Origin: a virus
Reading direction: 5' to 3' (one strand)
Length of the DNA stretch: 64,000 nt
Virus record (IMG/VR): IMGVR_UViG_3300043540_000091
Coordinates: 1 to 64,000 of that record
The translations under genes were made by a program, and so were the position numbers. This document shows positions 39,196-56,348 of this stretch, one piece after another; the stretch's first letter is position 1, and each line of letters begins with the position of its first letter. Under the pieces are notes generated by a model. It was given only the letters and a program-made list of their open reading frames with translations, was not told the origin of the DNA and did not search any database.

Positions 39196-40302
39196 TTAGC
39201 GTCCTTCCATCTTCTTGGACTTCTTAGGTTCCCAAGGCTTCTTGAGATCTTCTTTGATCTCTTCCTTGCTCATACGTATACCAGCCGGTTTAGCTGGCAT
39301 CTTTGGAGCTGCCATGGCAGGCTTCGGAGCAGCCGGAGCTGGCGCGGGAGCGGCCATTGCCTTGGTCAACTCTTCAAACTTGGCAGGCTCGTTCTTGGCA
39401 AGATCGATTAGATCTTTGGCTGCCTTGATGATCTCTGCTTTGTTCATGGGTTTCTTCTCGTCGGCGGACATACCTGCCTCCTTGTTCTCTTCAGATCGCG
39501 CTTGTGATGGATCGTGTAAGGTGCGAAGATGCGCGAGCATCGCACGCTGGCGTTCTGGGGTATCCAAGATCTTCATGGCATGACCGATCGTGTCGGCATG
39601 CTCAGATACATCATGAGCCTTGTCCTGCGGGCTGTTAGGCGCATGAGGCATATCGTCCTTCTTGACCTCGGACAGAGCCAAGCCCATCTCGGATGTTTTT
39701 TCCATTTCCTTCTCGGCCTTGGGCAGATTGGGCTTAGGCATTTCTTTAAGTTCTGCCAGCTTGTCCTTGTGCTGTTCCTTCGCCCAAGCGTTTGTCTTAG
39801 CGCTTGCGCCGCCAGGTGCCATGTGAGCTCCGACGCTTGAAGTTCCAGTCTTATGGCTTGCTCCGAAGTGAGCTTCGTGAACGCCCTTCTGTTTGCCCTT
39901 CTCGCCCTTTTCCATCTCAGCCTTGGGGAGGTTCGGCTTAGGAGCTTGCTTCATGTGAGCGAGACGGTCAGCAGCATCTTCCTTGGCCGATGACATGTAC
40001 TGCGCCGGTTCACGGACCTTCGTACCCATCGAGGATTGACCGGCTGGACGGCGCGGATCTTGATGGTTGATGCCGAAGTGATGAGAACGATTGGGATCAT
40101 TGTTGGTTATGAAGTTGCCGCCATGCTTGTCAGGGCCTATGTTACGCTTCCACTTCTCGTGGTGCGCGGCAGACGCCATGGACTTGCGACGTGCCTGTTC
40201 TTCTTTCGGAATAGCCTTGCCAAGTTCTTGAAATTGCTCAGGGTTTTCCTTAGCAGCCTTCAAGAGTCCCTTCGCTTGTTGAATAGCCTTATCTCTGCTC
40301 AC
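39196..40302 (-). CDS. low-complexity putative internal head protein with many [LM]xK[AST] motifs
   Basis: LGKA, LPKA x2, MEKT, MNKA, LAKN, LTKA; K/E/A/P-rich. Confidence 0.65.
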   Translation of the reverse strand: MSRDKAIQQAKGLLKAAKENPEQFQELGKAIPKEEQARRKSMASAAHHEKWKRNIGPDKHGGNFITNNDPNRSHHFGINHQDPRRPAGQSSMGTKVREPAQYMSSAKEDAADRLAHMKQAPKPNLPKAEMEKGEKGKQKGVHEAHFGASHKTGTSSVGAHMAPGGASAKTNAWAKEQHKDKLAELKEMPKPNLPKAEKEMEKTSEMGLALSEVKKDDMPHAPNSPQDKAHDVSEHADTIGHAMKILDTPERQRAMLAHLRTLHDPSQARSEENKEAGMSADEKKPMNKAEIIKAAKDLIDLAKNEPAKFEELTKAMAAPAPAPAAPKPAMAAPKMPAKPAGIRMSKEEIKEDLKKPWEPKKSKKMEGR

Positions 40303-40326
40303 CGTGCAATTCTCCTAACTGATCGA

Positions 40327-40335
40327 AAGATTAGG
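40327..40335 (-). promoter_or_regulatory. putative late promoter CCTAATCTT
   Basis: intergenic, ~25 nt upstream of 40302. Confidence 0.7.
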
Positions 40336-40339
40336 TTAT

Positions 40340-42640
40340 TCATGCAGGCTCTTCCGAATGGACCTTTACCGGATGGAACATGGCAACCACGTTCGGCAGC
40401 GGCGAGCTGGAGTTGGTGTAGCCGTGGTATCCGGCGTCACGTATCCTGCCAAGGATCATGTCAGAGTTCCACGCGCCGCCGTTGTCAGAGATCGCGGACT
40501 TCACATGGCTATCTGGATCTTTGGCGAGGTCATAGATCTTGGTCGTGTGAGGCAAGGACACCTTGTACTTCGCCGAAGAGCGGCTGCGCACGATGTCTTC
40601 CGGTTGAGATCCGGCACGATAGAAGTAGGAGCGAGCAACTTCCGGCAGGCCGCGCTTGTATTCCTGTGATGGTGCGCCGGTACCCATGTGACCAGGAGAG
40701 ATCTCGCTCAGTCCCTTGATCGCGCTGTAGTGTTCAAGCTGGATCGGAGCATTCTTTGCCATCGGATGAGGGAAGTTGAGTCGGAACTTGAAGGATGACC
40801 CGTCAGGCATGCGTACTTCAGTGTGATCTCCGGATGGATCTGTCACCTCAGAGTGACCAGCGCCGATGCCCATCGGTTTGTGAGACGGATGCGTTGCGAT
40901 CTCTTCGTGTTGCCCATGCTCTCCGTGGATGACCGCGAGCTGCCCATACTTCTTACCGAGCTGTATCGCATGCTCTCGCGACATTCCTGGAACGACGTAG
41001 CTAGGCTCGGTAGAGCCTCCCCATCGACCGACAGCATGAAGAGGTGAGTACCCAAGGCTCGCAACGTCAGACAAGAACGACTTGTGCGCTGCGGCGTTGT
41101 CAGCCTCTCCTGCTCCAGATCTGTGAGGAGTCAGGATCGCGAACCGGCCATTGGTAAGAAGCTTGGAGACGTGCTCGGAGTTCTTTGCAAGATCGCTCTT
41201 GGCCATGCGCTTCTTGAGCTTCGATCTGAAATACGCCTGAGCCTTACTGCGAGCTTCTTCATGATGGCCCTGGCCGCGAAGATTGATAGCGGTATGAGGC
41301 GACGGCTTGGTTACCCATCCTTTATCCGGTGAGTACTTCGCGTTTGAAGACTCGCGTTCCTCGAACAGCTTGGCTGTCTCAGGAGTATAGACTTCCTTAC
41401 CTCCGGCGATGTACTTACCGTTTGGCAGCTTGCGAGCTACCTGTACGTCCGGACGATCTGCGGCCATCTCGAATCCAGGCTTCTTGACTACACGTCCCTT
41501 CGCGTGAGCTGGGAGCCCAAGCTGACGACGGATCTGGTTCTCGCGAGCGGTCGATTCGTACTCGTCCTTGACACGCGCCTGTTGCTTGTATCCGTACTTT
41601 ACGTTCTGCGCTCCCCACTCCTTGTCCATCATCTCCTGGAACTGCTTCATGGCTACCTTCTCAGGTGCCATGTCCAAGTGAGCGAGTTCGTGAGCGAGAG
41701 AGTCGGGATTGCCGATATGTTCAAGATATCCAGTAGTTAAGTCGGGCTTGTTGATCATTTTTCCGGAAGAAGATTTCTTGCCCTTTGCCTGCCTTACCTT
41801 AACTCCATACTTCTTCTCGGCGTACTCAGACAATGTCTTCATCTGCTTCGCGCGTTGCTTGGAGTTGGGAGAGGTCTTCCAACTTCCAAACACCTTCTTG
41901 CGCTGCTCACGAACGTTCTTTGACTTCTCGAGGTCGTTTACAGTCGCTTCAGACTTGCCGCCGCCGAAGCCGATCGCAGCAAGGAGTTGCTTACTTTCTT
42001 GAGCTACGTTGTCGAGTCCAGTCTTCTCCGGCAGTCCTCCTGACAAGCTTTGCTGGATGGCCTTGCCCTGTTCAGCCGTGGGGAACTTCGGAGGAGTCGT
42101 GCCGCCTGGTTCGATCTTCTTCGCGGGAAGCTCTCCCTTGATCGTAGTGTATCCTGGCTTCACGTTCGGATTGATGACCTTGCCGCCCTCGCCTATTCCA
42201 AGCAGCTTCTCAGACATGCGGCGACCTTCGTTCTGGTCTCGACGCCAAACGCTCGTTACGAAGCGTGCTGCCTCTTCTCTGGCTGGATGATTGTATGGGA
42301 CGGGCTGGCCGGATAAGAAATGTTGCTTGAGAGAATCTGGGATCTGAACACCGGCGACATGGGTAGTCTCCGGAGTCTTCGGCACGATGGCAGATCCGAC
42401 CTTCTTAGACTTCTGGATGACCTTCCCGAAACCCTTGGGCTTGGGAGGCTCTTTGACGGTGACAGAGCCAAGAGGCTGCTTCGGCGGTTCCTTCATAGTG
42501 ACCGAGCCGAGAGGCTGCTTCGGAGCTGGCTTAACGGTGACAGATCCAACGGGAGGAGTCGCCGTGGGCTTCACGGTAACGGTACCGAACTCTCCGGATC
42601 TAGCTAACTTCTTGCCAAAAATCTTCTTGAAGGCGTTCAT
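40340..42640 (-). CDS. polyvalent protein: repeats + HExxH zincin + T3-SAMase/DUF3293-like + ART-like domains
   Basis: HELAH...E at 41678; FAILTPHRS...N...H...GRW...EPS...LGKKYGQ; LEHYS...GTG...RSYFY...IYD...GYHGY...VVAMFHP. Confidence 0.7.
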   Translation of the reverse strand: MNAFKKIFGKKLARSGEFGTVTVKPTATPPVGSVTVKPAPKQPLGSVTMKEPPKQPLGSVTVKEPPKPKGFGKVIQKSKKVGSAIVPKTPETTHVAGVQIPDSLKQHFLSGQPVPYNHPAREEAARFVTSVWRRDQNEGRRMSEKLLGIGEGGKVINPNVKPGYTTIKGELPAKKIEPGGTTPPKFPTAEQGKAIQQSLSGGLPEKTGLDNVAQESKQLLAAIGFGGGKSEATVNDLEKSKNVREQRKKVFGSWKTSPNSKQRAKQMKTLSEYAEKKYGVKVRQAKGKKSSSGKMINKPDLTTGYLEHIGNPDSLAHELAHLDMAPEKVAMKQFQEMMDKEWGAQNVKYGYKQQARVKDEYESTARENQIRRQLGLPAHAKGRVVKKPGFEMAADRPDVQVARKLPNGKYIAGGKEVYTPETAKLFEERESSNAKYSPDKGWVTKPSPHTAINLRGQGHHEEARSKAQAYFRSKLKKRMAKSDLAKNSEHVSKLLTNGRFAILTPHRSGAGEADNAAAHKSFLSDVASLGYSPLHAVGRWGGSTEPSYVVPGMSREHAIQLGKKYGQLAVIHGEHGQHEEIATHPSHKPMGIGAGHSEVTDPSGDHTEVRMPDGSSFKFRLNFPHPMAKNAPIQLEHYSAIKGLSEISPGHMGTGAPSQEYKRGLPEVARSYFYRAGSQPEDIVRSRSSAKYKVSLPHTTKIYDLAKDPDSHVKSAISDNGGAWNSDMILGRIRDAGYHGYTNSSSPLPNVVAMFHPVKVHSEEPA
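42430..42590 (-). repeat. ~12-aa coding repeat GSVTVKxPPKQPL
   Basis: four degenerate copies at the protein N-terminus. Confidence 0.75.
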
Positions 42641-42646
42641 GGTCTA

Positions 42647-42655
42647 AAGATTAGG
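42647..42655 (-). promoter_or_regulatory. putative late promoter CCTAATCTT (leaderless configuration)
   Basis: CCTAATCTT-TAGACC-ATG, no room for an RBS. Confidence 0.7.
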
Positions 42656-43837
42656 CTAATACGTCCTGAGTACCTGGATACCAGACGTAAGTTCGAGTGG
42701 ATGTATGATGATGCCTGCGTCCTCGGCGGAGATGGCCGGTCCGAACGATGACAGTTTCTTGAACGTGGGTTCATCGATCTCCACATGTGGCTCGTTTGAG
42801 CTAGACGTAGGTCCTATAGGAGACGTCGCGGCCATGAGGTGAGTCAGCTTCTCTGGCATCCCATGGACCACCAAGACGTGCTTCTTGCGGCCAACGGCTG
42901 CGATCTCTTGAGGAACGAACACGAGCTTTGACGATTGGATCGGAACGGAGGCATCGTGCGCGGACACCAGCTCGTGCAGCTTAGGATGCTGTGCGGCGGC
43001 CATCGGCCCAAAGTTCTTTACCACCATGCGAAATGGCTTGCCGTCATCGCTAGACGTACGTCCATATACCGTGACGGGGTACGACAAGATGAGATCCTTC
43101 TGGACCGGTTCTGCCTTCTTAAGTGACGGATCTTTTATGAAGCTGTTTGCCCAATGCACCGCGTCCTGAGTCATGTCTCGACTGCGGACGATCTTCTTGC
43201 CGGAGATCTTCTGAGCGTGCGCGGCCATGGTCGTCCCGATACCTTTACGACGATGAAGTCTGTTCACCTCGAAGTTGAACGGCATCAGGTCGCCGGACGG
43301 CGTATGGGTTACAGCCAAGAAACCAACCTGCTTCCCGCCACGTATAGCCTTGACGATGAAGTCGTGATTCTTTGGGTTGAACGCGCCTGGATCAACCGCA
43401 AACGATTCGACCTTGATCTTTGTAGCGGACTTCTCAACAGGCTCAGGCTTCTTCATCGTGTGGTTCATCCATTCCACGAGGATGTTACGTTCTTTTGGAA
43501 TGTGAAGGCTGTCGTGCGACGTCGGATCAAGGAACTTGAAGGTGACGAACTCTGAGTCAGGATCTGCGCCAGCATACGGGCTGAAGCCTTCCGGATACTC
43601 ACACGAGAACAGGTGAACGTGGGCGTCTCCATACATGTTCTCGTGCATGTGGTCGAGCTTAACTCCCTTGAGTCCAGTCTCTTCCTCGAGTTCGCGTGAC
43701 GCGGCTTCGCTGTCGATCTCGCCGCTCTTCGCATGTCCACCTGCCAATGCCCACCTATGATTGTCACGACGAAGGCCGTGCAGAAATAGGTTCGGCATCT
43801 CAGGATGTCTGATTGCGATGGCGACGATCTTCTTCAT
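42656..43837 (-). CDS. Nudix hydrolase + GNAT acetyltransferase + degenerate 2H-phosphoesterase-like fusion
   Basis: Nudix box GGHAKSGEIDSEAASRELEEETGL; GNAT VNRLHRRKGIGT; C-terminal domain with PHVEI; start at TAATG overlap 43837. Confidence 0.8.
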   Translation of the reverse strand: MKKIVAIAIRHPEMPNLFLHGLRRDNHRWALAGGHAKSGEIDSEAASRELEEETGLKGVKLDHMHENMYGDAHVHLFSCEYPEGFSPYAGADPDSEFVTFKFLDPTSHDSLHIPKERNILVEWMNHTMKKPEPVEKSATKIKVESFAVDPGAFNPKNHDFIVKAIRGGKQVGFLAVTHTPSGDLMPFNFEVNRLHRRKGIGTTMAAHAQKISGKKIVRSRDMTQDAVHWANSFIKDPSLKKAEPVQKDLILSYPVTVYGRTSSDDGKPFRMVVKNFGPMAAAQHPKLHELVSAHDASVPIQSSKLVFVPQEIAAVGRKKHVLVVHGMPEKLTHLMAATSPIGPTSSSNEPHVEIDEPTFKKLSSFGPAISAEDAGIIIHPLELTSGIQVLRTY

Positions 43838-44796
43838 TAAGGGTCTTCCTCCATCTTCCATCCCTGCGACTGAGCGTAGATCTGGTATTCATCTGGAGTG
43901 CGCGGACCGTCAATGATCCTGATGCCGCCCTTGATACCTTGGATCTTGGGAGCTGCGTACTTGATGAAGTTAGCTTCTACCTGGCCCGACAAGCTCATCG
44001 AGCAGCTGTATACACGCTCAGCTCCGTTGAAGTGCGGGTTCTCATCGATAGACCCAAGAGTGAAGGTCGATAGCTCGAATCCTCTACGCTCAAGATACGC
44101 TTCTTTGTAGCGGAGGAAGATGTACTGCGCGATCTGTCTAAGCCATATCGCCTGATTAAGATCAGACTCGGCGTGCAGGCCTATGGCGAACTGCTCTTCG
44201 AGGAAGGTCAGTTCCTTGTTCAGGTTCCACAGCGCGGTGGGCGGTACTACGTACGCATTGGTGAAGTCATCGTCGATGCCAGGTGTTATGAGGAACGCCT
44301 TTGGTCCGAGAACGGCGTTGATCACGTATGCCTTACTCGAACGCTTGGACACAAGATACTGCCCTGGCAACATGTTCGTGGTGTCGATGTTGTCGGGCAG
44401 GGTGAAGAGCCCCTTCTGCTTGTTGTACGCCTTAGGAGTGAACTCTGTATATGTCACCTGGATCTGCTTCGTGATATCGATCGGATCAAAATCTTCCTCT
44501 GATCCGATGTCCGCGAGTGAGTCTCGCTCTGTCATCTCTCTTGAGGAGGTGCGTACCACGGTAATGCAAGGGAAGCGAGGGGTGTCGACGCGGTTGACCA
44601 GGTAGACATCGATGTTGTTGCCAAGGAACCACTCCCTCGCACGTTGGATCTCCTTGTGACCATAGTCTAGTCGAGCGAGAGGATCGTTCGCGAGATCTGC
44701 GAAGATGTCGTCCAAGATCCAGTTGTTCTTGCGCAGGTCGGCAAGCGCTCCCTCGATCATGGTCTTGATAAGGATGTCAGTCGCGAGTATTCCCAT
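43837..44796 (-). CDS. tail completion/terminator-like protein
   Basis: PRFPCITV...E motif, synteny between neck and sheath genes. Confidence 0.6.
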   Translation of the reverse strand: MGILATDILIKTMIEGALADLRKNNWILDDIFADLANDPLARLDYGHKEIQRAREWFLGNNIDVYLVNRVDTPRFPCITVVRTSSREMTERDSLADIGSEEDFDPIDITKQIQVTYTEFTPKAYNKQKGLFTLPDNIDTTNMLPGQYLVSKRSSKAYVINAVLGPKAFLITPGIDDDFTNAYVVPPTALWNLNKELTFLEEQFAIGLHAESDLNQAIWLRQIAQYIFLRYKEAYLERRGFELSTFTLGSIDENPHFNGAERVYSCSMSLSGQVEANFIKYAAPKIQGIKGGIRIIDGPRTPDEYQIYAQSQGWKMEEDP

Positions 44797-44797
44797 G

Positions 44798-45772
44798 TTA
44801 TTGTCCTAACGTCTCCTCGATATTCTTCACTATCGTCTCCCACTGCGCGTTCGCATGGTCATACGCCTTCTGAAGAAAGTTTGCAGGCTCGACTGCGGGA
44901 TACATCCATCGATTCTCTTGCTTATGCTTCGACGATATAACCCTGAAGACAACCGTCTCCTTCTTAACAGAACCCTTCTTGGTCGCGGCGATCTTAGCAG
45001 CGTCGCGCTTGTTCGTTACGAGCTTGCCCTTGTCATACACGTTCTGAAAGACTGCGGCTCCCTGTAATTTGAATATACCAGAATGAGGGCGAAGGCCAGT
45101 CCTGGCCGCCTCCGTTTCCGTTCGCGGTCTGGAATAGATCACGCCAGGAGCATAGCCAGCGGCGTCATGTGGACGTATGTCCAGCTTCCTGATCAACCCA
45201 AGCTTAGGAGTATTGTCCAGGTTCTTCTCGATCTTTGTCAGATTGATCTTGTTCTGCTTGGTGTAATCTCGCACGATCTGTGACAAGGCAGGGTGAGAAG
45301 CGGTATCCTTCTTGTTGGAGGTCTCTTTGAACGGGATGGCCCTGTACAGAGATCCATCCTTCGCGCGTTTTACTCCACGGGCACCTGGCTTCAATAGCCA
45401 TTCTCCCATGAATGTTTCCTTACGGCCCTCTTCCAGCCAGCGTGCGCGTTCGTCAATCTCAACTACCCACAGTCCATCACCGACCTTGATCCAGCGAAGG
45501 TACTTTGGGACCTGGTCTACGTGAGGATCGTTGGTAGATCTGCTGGACGCGTCCTTGCCGAACTCGCCCGTACCAAGGTAGAAGTTACGCTTGAAGTCAT
45601 CGTCCTTCCATTTCTCCTTGGTTAAGCCGATGATGTATGCGTGGGAGGCTTTAGACAGAAGCTCGACTTGCTGGACGACTACGTCTTCGACAAGCTCGCG
45701 TGCGAGTCTTACCTTCGCAGCGATCTCGTCTACGTTTACCCTGAATCTAAAGAGGCCCTTCATGTCGTTCAT
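44798..45772 (-). CDS. neck / head-tail joining protein
   Basis: WLEEG...YRAIPF...VFRVISSK...WMYP pattern of large-myovirus neck proteins. Confidence 0.6.
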   Translation of the reverse strand: MNDMKGLFRFRVNVDEIAAKVRLARELVEDVVVQQVELLSKASHAYIIGLTKEKWKDDDFKRNFYLGTGEFGKDASSRSTNDPHVDQVPKYLRWIKVGDGLWVVEIDERARWLEEGRKETFMGEWLLKPGARGVKRAKDGSLYRAIPFKETSNKKDTASHPALSQIVRDYTKQNKINLTKIEKNLDNTPKLGLIRKLDIRPHDAAGYAPGVIYSRPRTETEAARTGLRPHSGIFKLQGAAVFQNVYDKGKLVTNKRDAAKIAATKKGSVKKETVVFRVISSKHKQENRWMYPAVEPANFLQKAYDHANAQWETIVKNIEETLGQ

Positions 45773-46962
45773 TAGGTAGCACCTTGATCACCGGCCTTCG
45801 AGTTGTGCGACTCGACTGATATGGCGTTACCTTTATCGTCTTGCACTTGCCCTGCTGCGACGGAACGCCACTTGGCCTTGCCATCGACGATCACCTTCTT
45901 CTTGCGGTTCTTAACTGTTCCGACAGGATACCGAATCTTGAGAGCCTTGTTCAGCTCTTCGGTCAGCGACGTGACTTCAAACTTCTTGGTGCTGCCTTCC
46001 TTGCGGCTCTTCACCATACCAACAAGCTTGTGGATCAGCGTGACTACCTTCTTGAATGCCTCTGGATTCTTATCGTGAAGCTCCATCAGCTTCGGCATGC
46101 GATCCTGCACGTCGGCCAGGAGCTTGCCAAGCTTCTCATTGTCATCTCCAGAATCATCGTCAGATTCACTGTCCGACTCGTCTGAATCATCGTCGCTCTT
46201 GGACTTGGAGCTGTCTTCCGAGTCTTCGGAATCACTGGACTTCTCCTTTGACTCAGTCTTCGGCTTGTCGCTCTTCTTCTCGCCGGACAGGGCTTCGAGC
46301 AAGCTGTCAGGCCCTTCACCTTGTTGTTGTTGCTCAGCCTGCTGCTGTTGTTGTTGCATCATCTGCTGCATCTCCTGAGCAGGTCCCATCAACTGCGATA
46401 CCGTAGCTTGGATGAGCTGATTCTCTGCCTCGAGAGCTTGCTGCGGATTAAGGCCAGGGACGTACTTGCCGACAGAATCTTTGCTCGAATCTGCCTTGGG
46501 AGACGGTGGATGAGTCTCGTCGAACAGATTCGGCTGGAAGTTGAAGGAATCATCCTCGATCTGGAGACTCTTCTTCATCTCGTCGTATGACTCATCTTTG
46601 GGATCGTACAGCTCGATGTCGTTCGTGTATACAGACTTCTTTGCGGCCAACGCAGCCTCTCTCAGATTGAGGCCCATGCCGACAGCCATGAGCATGCCGA
46701 ACACCTTCTTGTATCCTGCGAGGATCAGCGGGAGTTCTTCTGCTACTGTGACGGGAAGTTCTAGGATCTGACGTTCGTAGGTCGACAGCTTTACCTGTCC
46801 ACCGCGCTCGCCGACGAGCTTGTTGACCTTATCAGCGACAGACTTCAGTTGATAGTCTAGGCCTTGAGCTTCGGACAGATAGCCGCTGTCGACCAGATCT
46901 CTGATCTTGTCGGCTACGCCGTCCGTTATGATCATTACCCAAACTGATGTCTGCGTTGACAT
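45772..46962 (-). CDS. protein with degenerate mCpol (minimal CRISPR polymerase)-like N-terminal domain
   Basis: TDGVADKI...GGQVKLSTYE...VGMGLNLREAALA...IELYDP follows mCpol layout, but DGD and GGD are eroded; Q-rich and acidic linkers. Confidence 0.55.
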   Translation of the reverse strand: MSTQTSVWVMIITDGVADKIRDLVDSGYLSEAQGLDYQLKSVADKVNKLVGERGGQVKLSTYERQILELPVTVAEELPLILAGYKKVFGMLMAVGMGLNLREAALAAKKSVYTNDIELYDPKDESYDEMKKSLQIEDDSFNFQPNLFDETHPPSPKADSSKDSVGKYVPGLNPQQALEAENQLIQATVSQLMGPAQEMQQMMQQQQQQAEQQQQGEGPDSLLEALSGEKKSDKPKTESKEKSSDSEDSEDSSKSKSDDDSDESDSESDDDSGDDNEKLGKLLADVQDRMPKLMELHDKNPEAFKKVVTLIHKLVGMVKSRKEGSTKKFEVTSLTEELNKALKIRYPVGTVKNRKKKVIVDGKAKWRSVAAGQVQDDKGNAISVESHNSKAGDQGAT

Positions 46963-46976
46963 CGGATCTCCTCATC

Positions 46977-48923
46977 TTAGATACCGTGGTTCTTCTTGAT
47001 CAGCAGCCTTGCTTTAAGAGTCAAGAGGAACATCTTCACTGCTTCTGGATCGGCATCCTTGTCAAACTCAAGTCCGTACGTTCCATCGCTCTTTCGGATG
47101 GCATGAACGAACTTGGCCGGATGCCCTTCCTCGTCCTTCTTCAGAACTCTGAAACATGCGCACGGAGTAAACTCAGGGTTACCGTCTTCGCCCTTCACGA
47201 ACTCGGGCTTGCCACATTCCGGACAGGTAGACTTGAAGAGCATCTCTTCTGTGGCGATCTCGGTCTTGCCGAGCTTGCTACGGAAGTAGTCGCTCTTGGT
47301 CATATTCGGCTTCATGGTCGGGTTCTTCGGCTTCATAGCGCCTGGAGTCTGAGGAGGTTTGTACCCGCCGGTACCAGACATCTGAGCTTGCTTGGCTGCA
47401 GAGGCCTGCGGATTATTGCCAGCCGGTACCGGAGGTTTGGGAGGCTGCGGAGCGTGAGGAGCCTTCGGCTGACCTGCGCCTTTCGGCATCTCCGCCTTGC
47501 CCATCTCTTCCTTCTTGACGTGCTCGGGAAGATCTCTACCTTTAGACTCCTGATCCCAGTGATGAACAGCTTCCTTGCCGCCGAGAGCCTTGGTCCCAGC
47601 ATCGGTGTGAGCCCAGCGACGCTGAGCATCTGAAGCGTATGGCTTGGACAGAAGTTCTGACTTCGGAAGGTTTGGCTTAGGCATCTTCTTATACTGAAGA
47701 AGATCTCTCTGGCGTCCCCAGAATGCAAGAGGAGATTGTCTGCTGTCGCCTCTGGCCTTCGGATGAAGATGTTCGTTTGTTCCAGACGGCTTGACAGCTG
47801 CGTCAGCTCGCTCTTGTCGAATCTTACGCTTCTCTCTGTCGGATGGACCAGACTCGAGCTTGGCCTTCTCCATCTCTTCCTTCTTGATACCATCAGAAGA
47901 CATGCGCTGCTCTATGCCGGTCTGTTGTTCCTTCTGTGTGGCAGCCATGCGCGGAGACGCGATGTTGCGAGATGCCTGCTGGTTTGCTGCCTTGTTGCCA
48001 TCAGTCGCAGTGGACATGGCTTGCTTAGCCATCTTACCTTCAGCGGCATCTTCGCCTTCCTTGACCTTCTTAGGTTCTGGGCCTTCCTGAGCAAGCTTCT
48101 GAGTAGGTTCTGCTTTATGGTCACGGACCTCGAGGATGGACTGTTGCTTCTCTTTGATTGCAGGATTCGCGGCGATTGCCTTGATGTCAGCCTTGTTCTT
48201 CTCTTCTGGAGTCTGAGCGTTCTCACGCTTCTGCGGATCGCCCTCGACTTCCTTCTCAGATACCTTATCCAACTCGTCCTCCAGCTTCCTGCCAAACATA
48301 TGGCGAGCGGTCAACGAGTCGACTAGCTTGCCTATTACTGCTGTAAGTTCGCGCACGTTTGCGTGCGACATCTCCCACTTGATCTGTTCAGGATCGCTCG
48401 CAGGCTTAACGTTGGCAAGCTCTATCATTTGGTGTAACGCGGAGAACTCAGGCTTCTTACCTTCCTCAGAGTGCTTCTCCTCAGAGATTTCCAAGGCCTT
48501 TTCGTGATCATAGACCTTTGCTACTTCAGGCTTATTAGCTTCACCGAACTCATCATACAACTCGCCGACCGTCATGAGGTGGGCAGACGCTGCGGGAAGG
48601 GACTGCTTCTCGAACGAATGAATAACTCGACCGCCCGACACAAACTCGGCGCGGTACTGGTCGATGTCCTGCTTCTCAAAGTGGATGGCGATGTCGTCGC
48701 GACCAGGGAACTTGACGTCCTTGATCTCACCTGGTTTCATGGGCTTGATCGTTTGGATAAGCCACGACAGGATGGTACGCGGGACGACGATGAGAGGAAG
48801 GTAGTATTCCAAAGGATCTACGACAGCCTGAGTCCGTTGCTTATAGATGGCCTTCTCGAGAGTCTCGTACCCTCGATCACCAAGCATGGCTTTAAGCAAC
48901 TTCTGGCTGTCGTTCATGAACAA
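46977..48923 (-). CDS. putative internal head protein with C-terminal zinc ribbon
   Basis: LEKA, MEKA, LPKS, MGKA, MTKS, LGKT, LFKS motifs; CPECG...CAC. Confidence 0.65.
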   Translation of the reverse strand: MFMNDSQKLLKAMLGDRGYETLEKAIYKQRTQAVVDPLEYYLPLIVVPRTILSWLIQTIKPMKPGEIKDVKFPGRDDIAIHFEKQDIDQYRAEFVSGGRVIHSFEKQSLPAASAHLMTVGELYDEFGEANKPEVAKVYDHEKALEISEEKHSEEGKKPEFSALHQMIELANVKPASDPEQIKWEMSHANVRELTAVIGKLVDSLTARHMFGRKLEDELDKVSEKEVEGDPQKRENAQTPEEKNKADIKAIAANPAIKEKQQSILEVRDHKAEPTQKLAQEGPEPKKVKEGEDAAEGKMAKQAMSTATDGNKAANQQASRNIASPRMAATQKEQQTGIEQRMSSDGIKKEEMEKAKLESGPSDREKRKIRQERADAAVKPSGTNEHLHPKARGDSRQSPLAFWGRQRDLLQYKKMPKPNLPKSELLSKPYASDAQRRWAHTDAGTKALGGKEAVHHWDQESKGRDLPEHVKKEEMGKAEMPKGAGQPKAPHAPQPPKPPVPAGNNPQASAAKQAQMSGTGGYKPPQTPGAMKPKNPTMKPNMTKSDYFRSKLGKTEIATEEMLFKSTCPECGKPEFVKGEDGNPEFTPCACFRVLKKDEEGHPAKFVHAIRKSDGTYGLEFDKDADPEAVKMFLLTLKARLLIKKNHGI

Positions 48924-48926
48924 TCC

Positions 48927-49325
48927 TTAAGTGTTTGAGCCGCTGTTCGGATTGTACTCAAGCTCATCGGAGATCTCATATCCGAAGCAGGTCGCTGCGG
49001 ATGCTATGATGAACAAGTCTGAACCCATGGCTATGATGGTGTAAGCGTTCGGAGTCAGAGCGATACCATCAGCGCCGCCGGTGGGAGCAGTCACTGACGA
49101 GTTAGGTCCAGTCTTTGCCCAAGCCACAGATGACGAGTTGTTGTAAACCGCTATCAACCTGCCCATCTTGGAGGCTGCTTTGGCAGCATTCAATGCTCCC
49201 ATGATCGAGACTTTTCCAAGGATAGGGCCTAAGGTCTTAAGTGCTCCAGATTCCTGGTTAAAAGAGTAGTCAGTGGCCGTTGAGCCAACTCTATCCTGAC
49301 TAGCTTTTGATCGCTTCATGTTCAT
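48927..49325 (-). CDS. putative structural protein
   Basis: AGGAG RBS, follows a late promoter. Confidence 0.65.
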   Translation of the reverse strand: MNMKRSKASQDRVGSTATDYSFNQESGALKTLGPILGKVSIMGALNAAKAASKMGRLIAVYNNSSSVAWAKTGPNSSVTAPTGGADGIALTPNAYTIIAMGSDLFIIASAATCFGYEISDELEYNPNSGSNT

Positions 49326-49347
49326 GGGAATCTCCTATATACGCTGA

Positions 49348-49356
49348 AAGATTAGG
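49348..49356 (-). promoter_or_regulatory. putative late promoter CCTAATCTT
   Basis: intergenic, ~23 nt upstream of 49325. Confidence 0.7.
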
Positions 49357-49357
49357 T

Positions 49358-50266
49358 TCATAGCATGCCGCCGTCCGGTCCAGAATCGTTTGGTCCAGTG
49401 ACTCCGCCAACGGGAGGAGCGCCTTGGAATCGCTGGTCCATGATATGCTGGTTCGGATCTCGGTTTTGGTCGCTAAGTACGTGTTCTCTAATGACTAATG
49501 CCTGAAACGGTGTACGCTGAAGCTTGCGATTGAAGGTTTCAGGATCGGTGACCTGCGAAACCCTGATCTCGTGGAGCATCCGCGCTACGATGAAGTACGG
49601 GGTATACCGGTATCGGATGGAATATACCGTACCACGGCCAAGCTTCTCGTTGAATCCTGGTCGGTCCTGGCTGATCCACTTGATGAAGCCTTCCTTGGTG
49701 ATCTCGAAGTGCGTTCCTTCCTTGTATTCCTTGCCGTCCGCGTCGATTAGGTGCTCGACGCAGGTCGCTGGATACTGAAGCTTGTCTACTCCGGTCGTGT
49801 TCGCTTCGACATACTGGAAGGCGATGACTCGGACCTCGATATCTTTGAGGTAGAATCGGTCCCACGGTGCTAGAAGAACTTCCTTGTCTGGGCAGTTCTC
49901 GTACCATAGCTGGCTCGTCACTATCGCGACGTCGTGTTTGGTCATACCCTCGACCTCTACGTTCCAGTCGGACGTATTCTGGCTAAACCACAGAGTCAGT
50001 TCGCCTACCTCCTTGTAGATGAAGCCGTCAGACGACTGGCGTTTAGACTGGACAGCATGAACGTCGCCGATGGATGCCATGCCTGACGGATCTGGTATCG
50101 CACGCATGTGGATGACTTTGACGCCCTGACCTCTGATCAGACTCTCGAATGCTTCCATGTCGAAGGACTGCTGGAACTCGCCGAGCTTGAAGATTTGCTG
50201 CATCGCATCGGTCGGCTTGGAGGCCCTGGCTCGCGGACCGCCGCGACGTTTAGGATTGTCAGCCAT
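49358..50266 (-). CDS. head closure / head completion protein
   Basis: FESLIRGQG...PWDRF...YSIRYRYTPYFIV...HEIR pattern like Herelleviridae head-completion proteins; start MADNPK with AGGAGG RBS. Confidence 0.6.
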   Translation of the reverse strand: MADNPKRRGGPRARASKPTDAMQQIFKLGEFQQSFDMEAFESLIRGQGVKVIHMRAIPDPSGMASIGDVHAVQSKRQSSDGFIYKEVGELTLWFSQNTSDWNVEVEGMTKHDVAIVTSQLWYENCPDKEVLLAPWDRFYLKDIEVRVIAFQYVEANTTGVDKLQYPATCVEHLIDADGKEYKEGTHFEITKEGFIKWISQDRPGFNEKLGRGTVYSIRYRYTPYFIVARMLHEIRVSQVTDPETFNRKLQRTPFQALVIREHVLSDQNRDPNQHIMDQRFQGAPPVGGVTGPNDSGPDGGML

Positions 50267-50753
50267 CTTGGTCCTCCTTGAGGTCCTCGCAGTCTTGAGC
50301 AAGAGTCACCGGACTGGAAAGAGATGTGTCTCTCACCATGGCATACCGTGAAACTGTTCCGGACTTGAGTTCTTCCATTAGGTCAGACTTTCGCATGACT
50401 TCAATGGAACCCTTATTGATGTCGTATACCATGTAGACTCCGGTCTTGTCACCGTTTGTTGACAGCGGAGTCAGGATCGCATTGCGCATCCTCTGGAACA
50501 GCTCTCCTTCTGACTTGGTAAGATCTTCAGACTTATGGAAGTCTTCCTTCCACTTGATGTCATGCTTCTTGCTGGCAAGGTACTTGGCGATGGCGCGGTG
50601 AGGAGCCGCTCCAATCGACGAGATGGAACCATCCTCGTCCTTCATGAAGAACGCGTGCAGGCCGCCCTTGGTAGCGATATACACCACCGGCTTCCCATCG
50701 GTTGTCTTGCCAGCTATAGCCTTCTTTTCGATCTGATCAGAGCTGATCTTCAT
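50259..50753 (-). CDS. hypothetical protein with FHKSEDLTKSE linker
   Basis: 164 aa, two halves joined by tandem xxKS motifs. Confidence 0.65.
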   Translation of the reverse strand: MKISSDQIEKKAIAGKTTDGKPVVYIATKGGLHAFFMKDEDGSISSIGAAPHRAIAKYLASKKHDIKWKEDFHKSEDLTKSEGELFQRMRNAILTPLSTNGDKTGVYMVYDINKGSIEVMRKSDLMEELKSGTVSRYAMVRDTSLSSPVTLAQDCEDLKEDQDG

Positions 50754-51790
50754 TACTTCCTCTCATTGGCGGTCTTTACGTTGTCCGCCAGCTTCTGCAT
50801 AGAAGACTTCATCGAGTCGGGCTTGACTTCATCCAGCTTCTCGTCGCGTATCCGGCCTGGATCTGGCTGAAAGTTAGAAGAGCGCATCGGATCTTCTGTG
50901 ATCTCATCTTCTCTTCGCTTGTACCAGTTCTTTACCCTCATCTTGAAGTCTTCAGATTCCACTTCAGGCATCGACTTCGACAGTCCTGTAGGTTTCCTGA
51001 ATGGATTGAGCTGGCTTATGGCGGTGAACTTATTTACATAATCGCTGCTGGACAGCTTATCCTTGGTGATGTCGCGTGGCATCAGATTGTGGCCATGCAG
51101 CCACGCATACGCAGCTCTCTGCAGGTTACCACCCTGTCTCCTTATCACATGCTGAGCAAGCCTCCTGGCCAACCCAAGCTCGATCTGCGGATTCTTCTTG
51201 AAGTGCTCGTCCAGCTGGTCGCGCGACATGTTCTCCAGCTTCGCATACTCTGGAGTCAAAGATCCGTCCATGCGCATCCTGCCAACGAGTTCCTTTACGG
51301 TAGGCTTGAGCAATCCCCACTTGCCAACCGCTCTCATCCCCTTGAACTTGCCAGATCTGATCGGTTTGTGATTGACGTTGTTGCCTCCAGAAGATTCGAT
51401 CTGCTGGATGTTCCAAAGGAAGCTGTCGCTCGGATGACTGCCGAAGTCATCTTTGGGAGCTTCTGCCTGGACAGGAGTTGCATGCATCGAAGGAGATACC
51501 ATAGGATGCGGAGCTTGTGTAACGGAAGGAACTGAAGAAGCCAGGGCAATGCCGAGTGCCGCAGCCTTGGATCTGAGAGACTTCGATATCTCGGCGTCTT
51601 CAACCCAAGACCTCATGTTGTGGCCATCTAAGTATTCAGCAATGCACTGTACTGCCTCTTTGAGAGTACTGCAGCCCATGGCGATGTCTTCGGCCATCGG
51701 GAAATGCATGTAGACCTGCGCCAGATCCTCGACATCGGAGATCTTGTACCACTGGCGTTCTCCTGGCGCGAACTCAACATACAAAATCAT
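50753..51790 (-). CDS. lytic transglycosylase (lysozyme-like fold) protein
   Basis: IQQIESSGG (catalytic Glu), AVGKWGLLKPT, AYAWLHG, YVNKF motifs. Confidence 0.75.
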   Translation of the reverse strand: MILYVEFAPGERQWYKISDVEDLAQVYMHFPMAEDIAMGCSTLKEAVQCIAEYLDGHNMRSWVEDAEISKSLRSKAAALGIALASSVPSVTQAPHPMVSPSMHATPVQAEAPKDDFGSHPSDSFLWNIQQIESSGGNNVNHKPIRSGKFKGMRAVGKWGLLKPTVKELVGRMRMDGSLTPEYAKLENMSRDQLDEHFKKNPQIELGLARRLAQHVIRRQGGNLQRAAYAWLHGHNLMPRDITKDKLSSSDYVNKFTAISQLNPFRKPTGLSKSMPEVESEDFKMRVKNWYKRREDEITEDPMRSSNFQPDPGRIRDEKLDEVKPDSMKSSMQKLADNVKTANERK

Positions 51791-53625
51791 GCAGCTCCTC
51801 TCTGGCCAGCTATCCTGCTACGGTAGGATTCAGCCCAAGATTTGAGCATCTCCTTCTTGTCTTCCGGCATTTCGTCGATGGCGTTGGCGATGGCTTCCAT
51901 GTGAGGGACTTTGTACACCGGATTGTTGTCCTTGTCATAGCCCTTCATCTCCCAGAAATGCCGAAGCATCCGGTTCTTTGGATCTACGTCTGGGTTGGAC
52001 CGAACGGCTTCAGTCTCCATGTAAGGATTGCCAGCCAGAGACTTGAACGCAGAGGCCGCTTCCTCCGGAGTCATGCTGTCCAAGATGTTCTCGAGCGCAG
52101 ACCTCAGCATGTGAGTCTGGTTGTAGGTAAGATTCGGCTTGCGGTTCACCATGTCGGCGATTGCAAACATAGCGTCGCGCTTGTCTTTAGGAAGTGAGCG
52201 TATGGACTTGGCGCTGATCCGAGGAGTCTCCGGCTTCTTGATCCTGGCCGACTCAAAGGTGTTTCCCAGTGACTCTTGGTTGTACATGTGATCTGAGTCA
52301 GGATCTGCAGCCATCGACTTGGCCCACTGGTCCATCTTATGCCAACGGTCCATGAAGTTGCTACGGATGTGCTTGCGAAGAGTCTCGTCCTTGACTGAGC
52401 TGAGTTGATTCTCCATCTCGTCTCTGATGTTGCCGCCGTTGCCGTTCCACCAGTCGACGAGATCTTGGTGAGAATGCCAACCGCCGCCTGCCGAGTTCTG
52501 AGCGTGGTTCAGGACAGAGCCTTTTATGTAAGCCCAAGGCGTTTCCTTGTCCAGCGGAGACTGATCGGCTGCGCCGCCGAACATCATTCGCTGCCTGCGA
52601 TTCATGGCAGAGTCTTTGATTGGCTTATGGTACTGGAAGTTGCGTTCATGGTCGATGGCTAAGACAGGATCGTATCCGCGAGCATCGCTGTGACTGCCTA
52701 CCATCAAGTTACCCTGGTGCCGATCGAGATTGTTCGCGAGGTAGTCCATGACTCCGATCTTATGCACGTCAGAAGGATTCACAGTTCTCTCGATCCGGTA
52801 TCCACCGCGCGGCTGCCACACCATCAGAGAGCCTATCGGCTTATGGTCCTTGGCGAACTTGTGCACGGTCAAAGGGACTCCTTCATGTTCATGAGCAGAG
52901 ACGTCTTCCGCCAGGTGACCGATCTTGCCAGCGTTGAAGAGTACCTTCGTCGCCATTGTTGCCCAGCCGGTGATCGGAGCTTTAACCCAGCTCTTGGTGT
53001 GATACTCAAGCTTCTTATGGTACGGCTTGGCCATGTAGATGTCGGTATACACCGGCGGCTTGTGTACAGGACGAACCATCTTGGCAGAGATACCTCCGAT
53101 CGAGTCATCGTCGTGAGCGGCTACCTTCTCTGGGCTCGCCAATAGCTTGCCGTAGTCAGCGTGCACGGGAAACTGTTTCAGGTGTGCGGCATGGTCCACA
53201 GTCAGGTGCGCGTCGGGATGCTGCTTCTTTGCTACGCGATTCCAGTCCTTCGCCTTGACTGCCTTCGAGAGGTCGCTGAGAGACAGTCCATTGAGATAGC
53301 CGGTAGTCTCAGAAGCAAGGCGCTCGCATGACTTTCTAAGCATACACTTCTCGAAGTTCGATCCTACCTGATGGTTTATCTCCTGGGCAAACTTGGGATC
53401 GGTAAGATAGGACTCTACGAAACGTAGAACATCCATGCCCTTTGACATCCGCTTCATGATGGAAGGCGACTTCGACTTCACGAGAGCGGCGAATGCGTCT
53501 GCGGCTTCCTGTCCAAGCTCAGACGACAAGGCTTCGACGAACGCATCTACGCGCACGACCTCCGGAGATCCTGTTTTCTCTAGGCGGTCATATCGTCTGT
53601 CGAGCCAGCGTCTGATCTTACCCAT
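51787..53625 (-). CDS. PI3K/PI4K-HipA-like kinase domain protein
   Basis: YMAKP (ATP-binding Lys), DYLANNLDRHQGNLMV, VLAIDH. Confidence 0.8.
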   Translation of the reverse strand: MGKIRRWLDRRYDRLEKTGSPEVVRVDAFVEALSSELGQEAADAFAALVKSKSPSIMKRMSKGMDVLRFVESYLTDPKFAQEINHQVGSNFEKCMLRKSCERLASETTGYLNGLSLSDLSKAVKAKDWNRVAKKQHPDAHLTVDHAAHLKQFPVHADYGKLLASPEKVAAHDDDSIGGISAKMVRPVHKPPVYTDIYMAKPYHKKLEYHTKSWVKAPITGWATMATKVLFNAGKIGHLAEDVSAHEHEGVPLTVHKFAKDHKPIGSLMVWQPRGGYRIERTVNPSDVHKIGVMDYLANNLDRHQGNLMVGSHSDARGYDPVLAIDHERNFQYHKPIKDSAMNRRQRMMFGGAADQSPLDKETPWAYIKGSVLNHAQNSAGGGWHSHQDLVDWWNGNGGNIRDEMENQLSSVKDETLRKHIRSNFMDRWHKMDQWAKSMAADPDSDHMYNQESLGNTFESARIKKPETPRISAKSIRSLPKDKRDAMFAIADMVNRKPNLTYNQTHMLRSALENILDSMTPEEAASAFKSLAGNPYMETEAVRSNPDVDPKNRMLRHFWEMKGYDKDNNPVYKVPHMEAIANAIDEMPEDKKEMLKSWAESYRSRIAGQRGAA

Positions 53626-53626: not shown

Positions 53627-54520
53627 TTACACGTTTGAACTGAATAGGTTGTTCCCGAACATGGTCTTGAGCTGCTTCACGATGTCCTTATATCGGGTAT
53701 CCAGAGCCTGCCTCTTGTCCTGCAGAAGCTCGATCATCCGATCGTTGATGGACTGGCTCAGGCCGTCGATGGACATGGACTGCGATGCGGTCCTGAACAG
53801 CGGCAAGAGAAGATCGCAAGCGTAGATCGCGGCCATCGAACCGATAGCCTCGTTGACGACGACAGGTACGGTCCCGTCCTCGCACATCAGGCCGGTCTCG
53901 CACTCCACCGTCCAGTAGGCCGGTACCCAGCCCTGCTGACCGATGAACTGAAGTATCGTCGCGCCAGCCGCGCCAGTGGCGTTGGCCGTTCCAAGCGCCG
54001 TGAATGCCGGTGACAGCGGGTTCACGTTCAGGTAGCCACGGACGGCATTGCCCATCTCGATCCAGTCGGCTGGAATGCGATAGATCTCCCCGCCGGACGG
54101 AAACTGCTTGTTGGCTTCCAGGTTACCCTGATCGTCCACTACTTCGGTGTAGTTCGAGGATACGATAGCCATGCGGATCACGCGTCGGATCGGCTTGAAG
54201 GGGATCTCGAGGAAGATGTGCTGGTTGTAGAGGTTCGGATCGAATGCCAGCCTATGACGCAGGACCTTGGTCTGTACCAAGGCCTTGGTATCCAGCTGAA
54301 ACTTCGCCAAGCCACGTTTGATAAAATCCTCAAGATCCTCAGGAGTTAGCTTCTCCTTAGTAATCGGAGATACCAGAGGAATACCGAACAAGAATCGACG
54401 GGCCATCTTATTGCCGTCGAGCATCGGCTCAAGTTCGGCGTATAGACCGGTTCCGTCTATCGCACGCTCTGGGAACACTGCGCCTGTTGGCTTCTTAGCC
54501 TTTGAAAAGTCTGAACTCAT
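53627..54520 (-). CDS. head-tail adaptor/connector protein
   Basis: FLFGIPL...VPAYWTVECETG...SQSMSIDGLSQS resembles the Herelleviridae adaptor. Confidence 0.7.
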   Translation of the reverse strand: MSSDFSKAKKPTGAVFPERAIDGTGLYAELEPMLDGNKMARRFLFGIPLVSPITKEKLTPEDLEDFIKRGLAKFQLDTKALVQTKVLRHRLAFDPNLYNQHIFLEIPFKPIRRVIRMAIVSSNYTEVVDDQGNLEANKQFPSGGEIYRIPADWIEMGNAVRGYLNVNPLSPAFTALGTANATGAAGATILQFIGQQGWVPAYWTVECETGLMCEDGTVPVVVNEAIGSMAAIYACDLLLPLFRTASQSMSIDGLSQSINDRMIELLQDKRQALDTRYKDIVKQLKTMFGNNLFSSNV

Positions 54521-54927
54521 TAGCAGAAGAACCTTCCAGAATCTGCATCAGAAGCGATGAGCCTGCCGTCCAGCAGGAGGGTTTCGGACAGTCCGCCATC
54601 AGTCAGGACTGCAGTCACTGAGCCAGATATCGACTCGGTGGACAGCAGGGTGACCTTGAATATCGACCGATCGTCCGTTGGGTACACCATGATTCCAGAC
54701 CTGGTTATGACTCCGGCCTGGTCTATATTATCGAACGTGAACCGGAGAGTAGCGCCAGAACTTGGCAGCCACCTTTGAAGATCATCTCCAGGGCTGGCAT
54801 CGGCTGGCACCTGTATGATCTGAAAGTACAGGTCCTGCTGCGATCCGTTCACATGCTCGAATCTATCGACAGGACGGAACGTATTAAAACCCTTTACGTT
54901 TTCGAGTAAGCGGAGCATACGCTTCAT
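54520..54927 (-). CDS. putative structural protein (beta-sandwich)
   Basis: GGAGG RBS, first gene after the late promoter at 54957. Confidence 0.6.
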   Translation of the reverse strand: MKRMLRLLENVKGFNTFRPVDRFEHVNGSQQDLYFQIIQVPADASPGDDLQRWLPSSGATLRFTFDNIDQAGVITRSGIMVYPTDDRSIFKVTLLSTESISGSVTAVLTDGGLSETLLLDGRLIASDADSGRFFC

Positions 54928-56296: not shown

Positions 56297-56312
56297 GAAA
56301 CAATAATAGCAC

Positions 56313-56340: not shown

Positions 56341-56348
56341 GGTCTAGT

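Follow-up and report, generated by a model that had tools for sequence, protein, structure and literature searches.

Sites cut by proteases of the assemblin fold typically have a hydrophobic residue at P3 and a small residue at P1'. Assemblin itself cuts V/L/I-x-A↓S (the arrow marks the scissile bond), T4 gp21 cuts L/I-x-E, and HK97 gp4 cuts after a Lys that precedes Ser; Glu is the P1 residue of the T4/phiKZ type. In T4, phiKZ and SPN3US, a prohead protease of assemblin-type fold recognises one short motif and thereby cuts the capsid protein, the scaffold, the protease itself and internal proteins (in T4, Alt and IPI-III) that are ejected afterwards, as sections of PMC10052503 and PMC5694885 describe. 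For another class, the polyvalent proteins of phages and conjugative elements, which are multi-domain proteins with a predicted role as injected effectors, processing by peptidases was already predicted in sections of Iyer et al. 2017 (PMC5512222); T4 Alt is given there as an ADP-ribosyltransferase. Here we describe a comparable system in the 138,678-bp viral contig IMGVR_UViG_3300043540_000091 of IMG/VR, of which the first 64 kb (positions 1 to 64,000) were analysed as the window. A block of genes at 39,196 to 53,625 encodes proteins of several enzyme-like domains, and an earlier note on the window had proposed that these proteins are loaded into the head, cut into free domains and injected with the DNA. 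At the sequence level, the linkers joining the modules were shown to carry a hydrophobic residue, any residue, Lys and then Ser or Ala, often followed by Glu, and the same motif recurs in the scaffold and capsid proteins, in the protease and in the internal-type proteins. Every gene concerned is on the minus strand.

Like the polyvalent proteins in the described part of PMC5512222, the proteins of this block combine unrelated enzyme domains in one chain (Nudix, GNAT, zincin, ART, lysozyme/transglycosylase types) and are encoded beside virion genes, a setting for which packaging and injection were predicted there. Unrelated activities are present in single chains in the 401- and 766-amino-acid (aa) proteins, the genes are near virion genes, and the domains recur alone or recombined. 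PMC5512222 names no cleavage motif and has 0 occurrences of 'linker' in its text, and no cleavage motif for polyvalent proteins was found in the literature searched, subscription journals and supplementary files being outside the scope of that search. Unlike the T4/phiKZ type, the P1 residue here would be Lys (or Ala), and the sites are located between successive enzyme domains, so that several products would arise from one gene.

Distribution of the motif in the phage and its relatives

The motif [LMVI]xK[SATN] was counted in the proteins of the genome, and the expectation was obtained from shuffles of whole proteins or of 10- or 20-residue windows, in which the local composition is kept. The eight candidate proteins of the block are listed below together with sites within them; Mx1 is Myxococcus phage Mx1 (OR576727.2), and a break point is a position at which the homology to other proteins starts or stops (n, number of proteins).

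39196..40302, minus strand: 368-aa Lys-rich protein with 9 motif instances against 2.1 expected, containing the peptide PKPNLPKAE twice
40340..42640, minus strand: 766-aa polyprotein, AlphaFold (AF2) model from 47 sequences with a mean predicted local distance difference test score (pLDDT) of 80
42656..43861, minus strand: 401-aa protein with Nudix (aa 25-116) and GNAT (aa 160-221) domains from Pfam and a further C-terminal domain
43427-43438 and 43112-43123, minus strand: VEKS and LKKA, between the domains of the 401-aa protein
45772..46962, minus strand: 396-aa protein with an N-terminal domain, MKKS at 46567-46578 and a long acidic low-complexity region
46977..48923, minus strand: 648-aa protein, both ends of which match a 312-aa Mx1 protein, with a Lys-rich insert between them
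50259..50753, minus strand: 164-aa protein with LTKS at 50511-50522 and a break point at aa 80
50753..51790, minus strand: 345-aa protein with an SLT-like core (aa ~72-262), flanked by ISKS at 51578-51589 and LSKS at 50972-50983
51787..53625, minus strand: 612-aa PI3/PI4-kinase-like protein with LSKA at 53260-53271 before the conserved part

These eight proteins contain 41 instances of the motif against 18.2 expected (z 5.7), a count reached in none of 1000 whole-protein shuffles. The window shuffles gave the same picture, with 18.4-18.6 expected (z 5.2-5.5; 0 of 400). Nine upstream head proteins contain 46 instances against 23.8 expected (z 4.2-4.3 with window shuffles), and the seven of these nine that are encoded beyond the window, which were not available when the motif was chosen, contain 35 against 21.5-22.4 (z 2.9-3.1). 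The numbers were 7 against 5.2 in six conserved neck genes, 31 against 28.7 in 21 tail proteins and 99 against 93.8 in 122 other proteins; the tail and other proteins combined (143) gave 130 against about 121-125 (z 0.5-0.7). Control motifs (Lys changed to Arg or to Glu, reversed order, shifted spacing) appeared at 0.46-1.34 of expectation in the two head sets, and the signal comes mostly from Lys followed by Ser or Ala (2.2-2.6-fold). The 368-aa protein has the highest enrichment of the 166 proteins (Poisson p 3.5e-4), and the 648-aa protein contains 10 instances against 3.1 expected. The enrichment test that the earlier note had called for came out in its favour and survives shuffles that keep composition; all nine motif groups that it cited are present on the minus strand, its coordinate being the low end of each 12-nucleotide site.

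Relatives were collected from IMG/VR with an alignment of two capsid proteins, that of this phage and that of Mx1. Ninety-six were found, and the best 80 loci were used; related-loci searches from one protein query yielded no relatives, and alignments with the Mx1 orthologues were required. In Mx1 itself, 13 accessory, scaffold and protease proteins contain 43 instances against 20.8 expected, and nine conserved structural proteins contain 8 against 8.0. Among 1174 distinct proteins of the related loci, [LMVI]xK[SA] was enriched 1.88-fold overall, 5.9-fold in scaffold homologues, 2.3-fold in protease-bearing proteins and 2.3-fold in proteins without a counterpart in the genome under study, and was not enriched in terminase (0.73), ligase (0.91) or the conserved neck genes (0.78-1.07). 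The 766-aa protein was also searched against a library of 1.8 billion representatives, which gave 676 at E ≤ 0.001, and 150 representatives of these (50%-identity clusters) were analysed. They contain 128 instances of [LMVIF]xKSE against 11.5 expected (11-fold). In addition, [LMVI]xASE occurs 57 times against 7.9 expected, and its L-A-A-S-E variant is enriched 7-fold.

One explanation of these counts is that the motif is a by-product of Lys/Ser/Ala-rich composition and was picked post hoc, since it was chosen after the candidates had been viewed and these contain 10.5% Lys. We find this hardly credible, as the signal was reproduced with local shuffles and control motifs, in the unseen head genes, in Mx1, in the 1174 related proteins and in the 150 representatives. 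The sequence comparisons support the view that the motif is a real and specific signal, which the multi-domain enzymes and the protease protein have in common with the scaffold and the capsid N-terminus.

Module edges in the polyproteins

The 766-aa protein is predicted to consist of disordered repeats, a small fold at aa 90-155, a zincin-like module B (241-480), a SAM-lyase-fold module C (488-625) and an ART-like module D (629-766). Its homologues match in blocks, with edges at 1-219, 229-239 to 475-491, 479-494 to 623-642 and 622-636 to 758-766, and these edges coincide with LEKS (K239), MAKS/LAKN (K481, K486) and MAKN (K629). The junctions are as follows.

41921..41932, minus strand: LEKS (K239↓S240), start of the zincin module; break point aa 233 (n=6), block 231-240 with pLDDT 57
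41180..41206, minus strand: MAKSDLAKN (K481↓S, K486↓N), zincin/SAM-lyase junction; break point aa 483 (n=3)
40751..40762, minus strand: MAKN (K629↓N630), SAM-lyase/ART-like junction; break point aa 628 (n=5)

The folded blocks of the model are 90-155, 241-480, 491-620 and 631-766, and its only two inter-domain dips in confidence, at 481-490 (65) and 621-630 (68), both fall on motif sites. Around MAKN, the structural matches stop at 625 and resume at 629. IQKS and VPKT are located in the disordered stretch 14-88, and LEKS is at the edge of the disordered stretch 161-232. Tandem peptide repeats of the GSVTVK-x-PPKQP-x-GSVTVK type are located at aa 14-75 (window 42400-42600), in a stretch predicted to be disordered, and the same repeats are also present at the ends of the database homologues P0005, P0006, P0015, P0018 and P0026.

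For module C, the structural matches were 7ock_L at Z 11.5 (root-mean-square deviation 3.6 over 129 aligned residues) and 8bb1_E at a Foldseek E of 1.6e-4. In Pfam it matched DUF3293 (E 3e-10; 41 bits against a cut-off of 25), and with S-AdoMet_lyase it scored 16.1 bits against a cut-off of 28, a family that 4 of the 47 homologues match (best E 2e-8). The modelled fold of module C is like those of T3 SAM lyase and Svi3-3; unlike these small early proteins, it is predicted to be internal to a 766-aa late protein. For module B, an HExxH that is conserved in the homologues is the lead for a zincin; aa 250-431 gave Z 6.5 with YfcM, and the single Pfam match was weak and unrelated (Cupin_8, E 0.063). 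Module D (aa 629-766) gave Z 5-6.5 to the catalytic domains of MbcT, ParT, diphtheria-toxin-type enzymes and PARP in the VIA comparison, values below 8 that may reflect only a common arrangement, and an Atlas lead to PF18760 ART-PolyVal, found in 20% of the cluster members. Pfam gave no match for module D or for the first 236 residues, and a PDB sequence search with the 766-aa protein gave nothing useful. Residues 541-766 of the model also showed a moderate match (Z 6.7, 120 residues) to chain 9k3a_B of the cyanophage A4 pre-ejectosome, an assembly that is a solved structure of virion-internal ejection proteins.

Modules B, C and D were found in proteins of 100 to 3568 aa. Among the 150 representatives, the motif stood beside 56 of 66 internal starts of module B. 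For module C it accompanied 10 of the 15 starts and 16 of the 21 ends, and for module D 38 of the 79 starts and 32 of the 58 ends. The controls with Lys changed to Arg or Glu gave 0-12 at the same edges, and 0-5 at the module B starts and the module C and D ends. A more general test was made with 1309 proteins. Of 428 terminus-mapped break points, 55 had [LMVI]xK[SA] within 8 aa, where 24.5 were expected, and six other motifs (with P1, P3 or P1' altered, the order reversed or the spacing changed) gave 0.80-1.22 of expectation in the same test; a first version, unfiltered, was noisy and gave 1.27-fold. Within the block, seven of the nine groups that the earlier note had placed at domain boundaries are within 12 residues of a homology break point, and LSKA is marginal.

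The exchange of domains at the motifs, which that note had suggested checking, is evident in the relatives, in which modules are swapped, inserted and split at the sites. The Nudix part of the 401-aa protein (9-139) stands alone in many relatives as a protein of ~131 aa (break point aa 135, n=15), one relative has an insert of ~295 aa at the position of LKKA, and another joins Nudix straight to module D. An insert of ~305 aa is located exactly at the LTKS of the 164-aa protein in one relative. The core of the 345-aa protein, with break points at aa 73 (n=6) and aa 263 (n=5), was found inside the 1479-aa 'NUDIX hydrolase' polyprotein of Mx1; the Nudix and SLT-like cores thus share one Mx1 chain, unlike here, where they are in two separate genes. 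In the 648-aa protein, the insert contains a mobile module of ~57 aa (aa 423-479; 47487-47657) that starts with 'ELLSKPYASDAQRRWAH' and is flanked by LPKS (47658-47669) and MGKA (47493-47504), with break points at 421 (n=9) and 482 (n=9). A relative's 433-aa kinase-like form begins at aa 149 of the 612-aa protein, for which the break-point match of LSKA is marginal, and residues 139-203 of the 368-aa protein recur within a 706-aa protease polyprotein of relatives. These patterns suggest that modules are exchanged between phages in units bounded by the proposed cleavage sites.

Some further features of these proteins were observed. The 'ELLSKPYASDAQRRWAH' mini-module recurs in unrelated polyproteins of relatives and in database representatives (e.g. 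P0012). The peptide (M/A)PKPNLPK[AS]E is present in three copies in two proteins (39700-39935; 47658-47690); in relatives a recurring module terminates with it, and it is also the exact end of one database protein. Mx1 has a different, four-fold repeat of the KMEMPATKE type, which flanks a DUF3293 domain.

The enzyme assignments of the earlier note stood in part. Nudix (above the Pfam cut-off), the PI3/PI4-kinase-like domain of the 612-aa protein (PF00454, 31.3 bits against a cut-off of 27.1) and the SAM-lyase fold were upheld, and GNAT was borderline (20.4 against 20.7 bits). The ART-like fold, the zincin, SLT (an Atlas lead from the 345-aa core to PF01464) and mCpol (a weak Pfam match of the 396-aa protein's N-terminal domain, E 0.11, below the cut-off) stay at the level of leads, and the 2H-like call was supported by no search. 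Pfam likewise left unnamed the last domain of the 401-aa protein, the whole 164-aa protein, the core of the 345-aa protein and the N-terminal part of the 612-aa protein.

Capsid, scaffold and prohead protease

The head proteins that share the motif are encoded upstream of the block.

61982..63373, minus strand: major capsid protein of the SPO1/Mx1 type (phrog_752)
63375..64223 (genome; past the window edge), minus strand: scaffold protein, 282 aa, with 6 motif instances against 1.2 expected
72447-74198 (genome): prohead protease with a C-terminal PI3/PI4-kinase-like domain

As the earlier note had recorded, LVKT is present twice in the capsid N-terminus (aa 4 and aa 11), and the maturation site is proposed at L11-V-K13↓T14 (63332-63343). 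The form [LMVI]xK[AT][LM][ETD][ALV]G was found in 80 of 80 capsid genes, after an N-terminal part that is variable in sequence as well as in length. The scaffold contains MGKS, IQKS and LEKS, as noted before, and a further LAKS in the part beyond the window edge. In 62 aligned distinct scaffolds, which are otherwise of low complexity and poorly conserved, the motif lysines are the best conserved columns: K171 is kept in 59 of 62, K218 in 60, K253 in 56 and K27 in 51, and S-E is the usual continuation.

The motif might nevertheless be an uncut linker or docking element (a contact with the capsid interior or the scaffold) or a module-exchange junction, with the proteins staying intact. It does mark the sites of module exchange, one site is modelled as helical, and sections of PMC5512222 describe the transfer, without cleavage, of the N4 virion RNA polymerase and of some plasmid polyvalent proteins. 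However, a recombination junction acts on DNA and fails to explain the amino-acid specificity (Lys, not Arg or Glu, at fixed spacing), nor does it account for four to six conserved copies per scaffold or for a capsid N-terminal site placed after a variable stretch. We consider an uncut linker, docking element or junction unlikely.

The prohead protease was expected past the right edge of the window and was found there. Its first 290 residues are 41% identical to the 'putative prohead protease' of Mx1, and an AF2 model of aa 1-200 (31 sequences) reached a pLDDT of 89. A Foldseek comparison of this model with the PDB gave six matches at E ≤ 0.001, all of them herpesvirus assemblins (E 2e-4, probability 1.0; leading matches 4v07, 2wpo and 2pbk). 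There were 194 matches in BFVD, many of them named prohead protease, HK97 proheadase ('Proheadase_HK97') or XkdF, and the best was a 584-aa phage protein of the same protease-plus-kinase build. His47 and Ser124 (in FSIEG) are invariant in the 31 aligned sequences and are the putative catalytic residues. The only lead from a curated family was phrog_1028 'head maturation protease' (E 9e-4). The protein is like herpesvirus assemblin and the HK97-family proteases in its fold, its invariant His and Ser and the hydrophobic-x-P1↓Ser form of the site, and unlike them in its fusion to a PI3/PI4-kinase-like domain and, in relatives, to up to ~1400 further residues. The 1239-aa protein of Mx1 likewise has an N-terminal protease part and a C-terminal kinase-like part. 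The head module of this phage contains two PI3/PI4-kinase-like domains (51787-53625; genome 72447-74198), the second being that fused to the protease.

Among 49 distinct protease proteins of the relatives, the protease is the N-terminal domain in 47, unlike the assemblin-like peptidase fusions noted in PMC5512222, which are always C-terminal in the sections concerned. Their lengths exceed 400 aa in 48 cases, 600 aa in 29 and 1000 aa in 13. A kinase-like domain is fused to ten of them and the zincin module of this window to four, and in one of these four a stretch of the 368-aa protein that ends with MPKPNLPK↓SE is present as well. A site of the [LI]FK[ST]E type follows the protease domain in the 31-sequence alignment, and a motif instance is located within aa 151-260 of 46 of the 49 proteins. 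In 25 of the 49, the N-terminal segment of the capsid is also repeated internally, again with K↓[AT] at the junction.

An alternative is that the linkers are cut by the polyprotein's own zincin-like metallopeptidase, in the head or after injection, without involvement of the prohead protease. Processing of polyvalent proteins by zincin-like peptidases was proposed and favoured in sections of PMC5512222, and the HExxH module of the 766-aa protein, conserved in homologues, is itself flanked by motif sites. In contrast to that proposal, the site here is shared with the capsid and the scaffold: the motif is kept in the capsid N-terminus, in the scaffold and behind the protease domain, the substrates that a prohead protease normally has. 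Mx1 shows the same enrichment of the motif, but a search of its complete record, made without a positive control, did not find the zincin module. The hydrophobic-P3, small-P1' form of the site also suits enzymes of the assemblin fold. Processing by the zincin therefore appears quite unlikely to us.

Gene layout and the proposed processing

The source phage is a contractile-tailed phage of the Mx1-type family, in which Mx1 is the sole named member. Its capsid protein is 52.6% identical to the Mx1 homologue, SPO1-type capsids being more distant, and the gene order from terminase to tail sheath agrees with that of Mx1. Since the best 80 of the 96 IMG/VR relatives have capsid identities of 47-87%, the family is large and mostly uncultured; their contigs reach 182 kb. 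Neither a near-identity DNA search of the block nor a tblastn search with the 766-aa protein gave a match in 50,697 phage records.

The genes are ordered portal (75888-78065), protease (72447-74198), scaffold (63375-64223) and capsid (61982-63373) in genome coordinates, and the effector genes are located between the capsid and sheath genes, alternating with conserved structural genes:

43837..45772, minus strand: two conserved structural (neck/head-completion) genes, 319 and 324 aa, with Mx1 orthologues of 32% and 28% identity
48927..50302, minus strand: conserved virion structural genes, 132 and 314 aa (phrog_1004 'virion structural protein', E 4e-12; orthologues in 23 loci)
53627..54927, minus strand: two conserved structural genes, 297 and 135 aa, with zero motif instances and orthologues in 50 and 18 loci

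PDB sequence searches with two conserved neck proteins gave nothing useful, and therefore the 'head-completion' label comes from synteny and PHROGs.

The late motif CCTAATCTT, which the earlier note had described for these genes, was found in 12 exact copies genome-wide, all on the minus strand, of which only three are inside the block:

12891, 16415, 21763, 22667, 26094 and 31962 (window), minus strand: CCTAATCTT copies
40327-40335, 42647-42655, 49348-49356 and 54957-54965 (window), and 79074 and 110857 (genome), minus strand: CCTAATCTT copies

Eleven of the 12 are 7-73 nucleotides upstream of a minus-strand gene start, mostly of tail, neck and head genes. The motif is common to the effector block and the tail genes, and we count this as late co-regulation in favour of the reading set out below. 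The copy at 42647 ends 6 nucleotides before an ATG, which is odd for a promoter element.

Other genes of the region were also noted. Replication- or early-type genes are present on the late strand at 55262-61619, between the capsid gene and the neck block; they include an ATP-dependent DNA-ligase-like gene (58290-59477) and an exonuclease-like gene (57711-58289), both named from their own sequence, and a DUF932 gene (56615-57580). Mx1 has thymidylate synthase and dNMP kinase at the equivalent position. A GIY-YIG homing endonuclease gene (genome 74180-74968, minus strand) is an insertion that separates the protease gene from the portal-adjacent head gene. A 2170-aa protein is encoded between the protease and scaffold genes (genome 65330-71842, minus strand); it matches no Pfam or PHROG family, and the first 50 kb of Mx1 contain no counterpart of it. 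Long open reading frames on the plus strand that are antisense to late genes, such as the 471-aa frame opposite the capsid gene (62018-63433), are taken as non-coding shadows of the minus-strand genes.

From this layout, the products could also be late cytoplasmic enzymes that are not packaged and remodel the cell late or at lysis, the motif serving another purpose. An SLT-like enzyme and kinases could work from inside the cell, and the virion-unrelated ligase and exonuclease genes share the cluster. Against this, relatives have the modules fused to their prohead protease, the modules are encoded amid head and neck genes here as well as in Mx1 and related contigs, and the match to the cyanophage pre-ejectosome protein, although moderate, is to a protein of the virion interior. 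We judge a purely cytoplasmic role to be very unlikely.

We propose instead that the hydrophobic-x-K↓[SA] linker would be the recognition site of the phage's own assemblin-fold serine prohead protease, and that the same site would be used for trimming the capsid N-terminus, degrading the scaffold and freeing the protease itself. The polyproteins would be incorporated into the prohead and, in the maturing head, cleaved at the linkers into free enzymes, which would be ejected with the DNA and act on host defences and metabolism early in infection. Cleavage of the effectors by the head protease is suggested because the linker motif is shared with the capsid, the scaffold and that protease. For incorporation into the prohead, the pointers are the fusions behind the protease in relatives and the copy of the capsid N-terminal segment in the protease protein. 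Sequence evidence gives good support to the motif and to its link with head maturation. Packaging, cleavage into free domains by the prohead protease and ejection together are the most likely reading, to which we give about an even chance. We infer a possible anti-defence role solely from which domains are present (SAM-lyase and ART-like folds, Nudix, GNAT and kinase).

Several observations weigh against this reading. About 18 of the 41 instances in the candidates are expected by chance, 12 of the 41 are within 12 aa of a mapped break point, and IVKA169 and VVKN280 are inside homology-defined modules; the loose four-residue motif is non-predictive for any single site. The 2170-aa protein of the head module is not enriched in the motif, its homologues standing at 0.79 of expectation. 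The MAKS/LAKN site is modelled, with low confidence, within a long helix (aa 460-497). In the capsid, L-x-K-[AT] may be kept for structural reasons and not as a cleavage site. For the protease, Pfam searches up to E 1 with 31 members gave 12 unrelated weak matches, each from a single member, and no protease family, PDB sequence profiles up to E 10 gave no match, and its own site after the protease domain, LMKFES, deviates from the [LI]FK[ST]E of relatives. The known cuts in SPN3US substrates remove N-terminal propeptides only, according to sections of PMC10052503 and PMC5694885, and multiple internal cuts would therefore be new. The report on Mx1, the only cultured relative, is a genome announcement without virion data (PMC10720576).

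A wider form of the proposal is that hydrophobic-x-(K/A)↓S-E is a general processing code, read in maturing capsids by an assemblin-fold protease that is itself the first domain of the polyprotein; we advance this tentatively, at somewhat less than an even chance. How long polyvalent chains become active enzymes has been open since the prediction of 2017, and a junction motif together with a protease makes the question directly testable. The motif also serves as a rule by which thousands of unannotated metagenomic polyproteins can be divided into functional units, among them candidate counter-defence enzymes such as SAM-lyase-like, ART-like, Nudix, GNAT and kinase modules. If the proposal is true, proteins of up to ~3500 residues would be converted into a dozen free enzymes, forming an exchangeable anti-defence kit, and the system would be a DNA-phage counterpart of the polyprotein processing of RNA viruses, widespread in uncultured phages (one such protein is matched by 676 database representatives).

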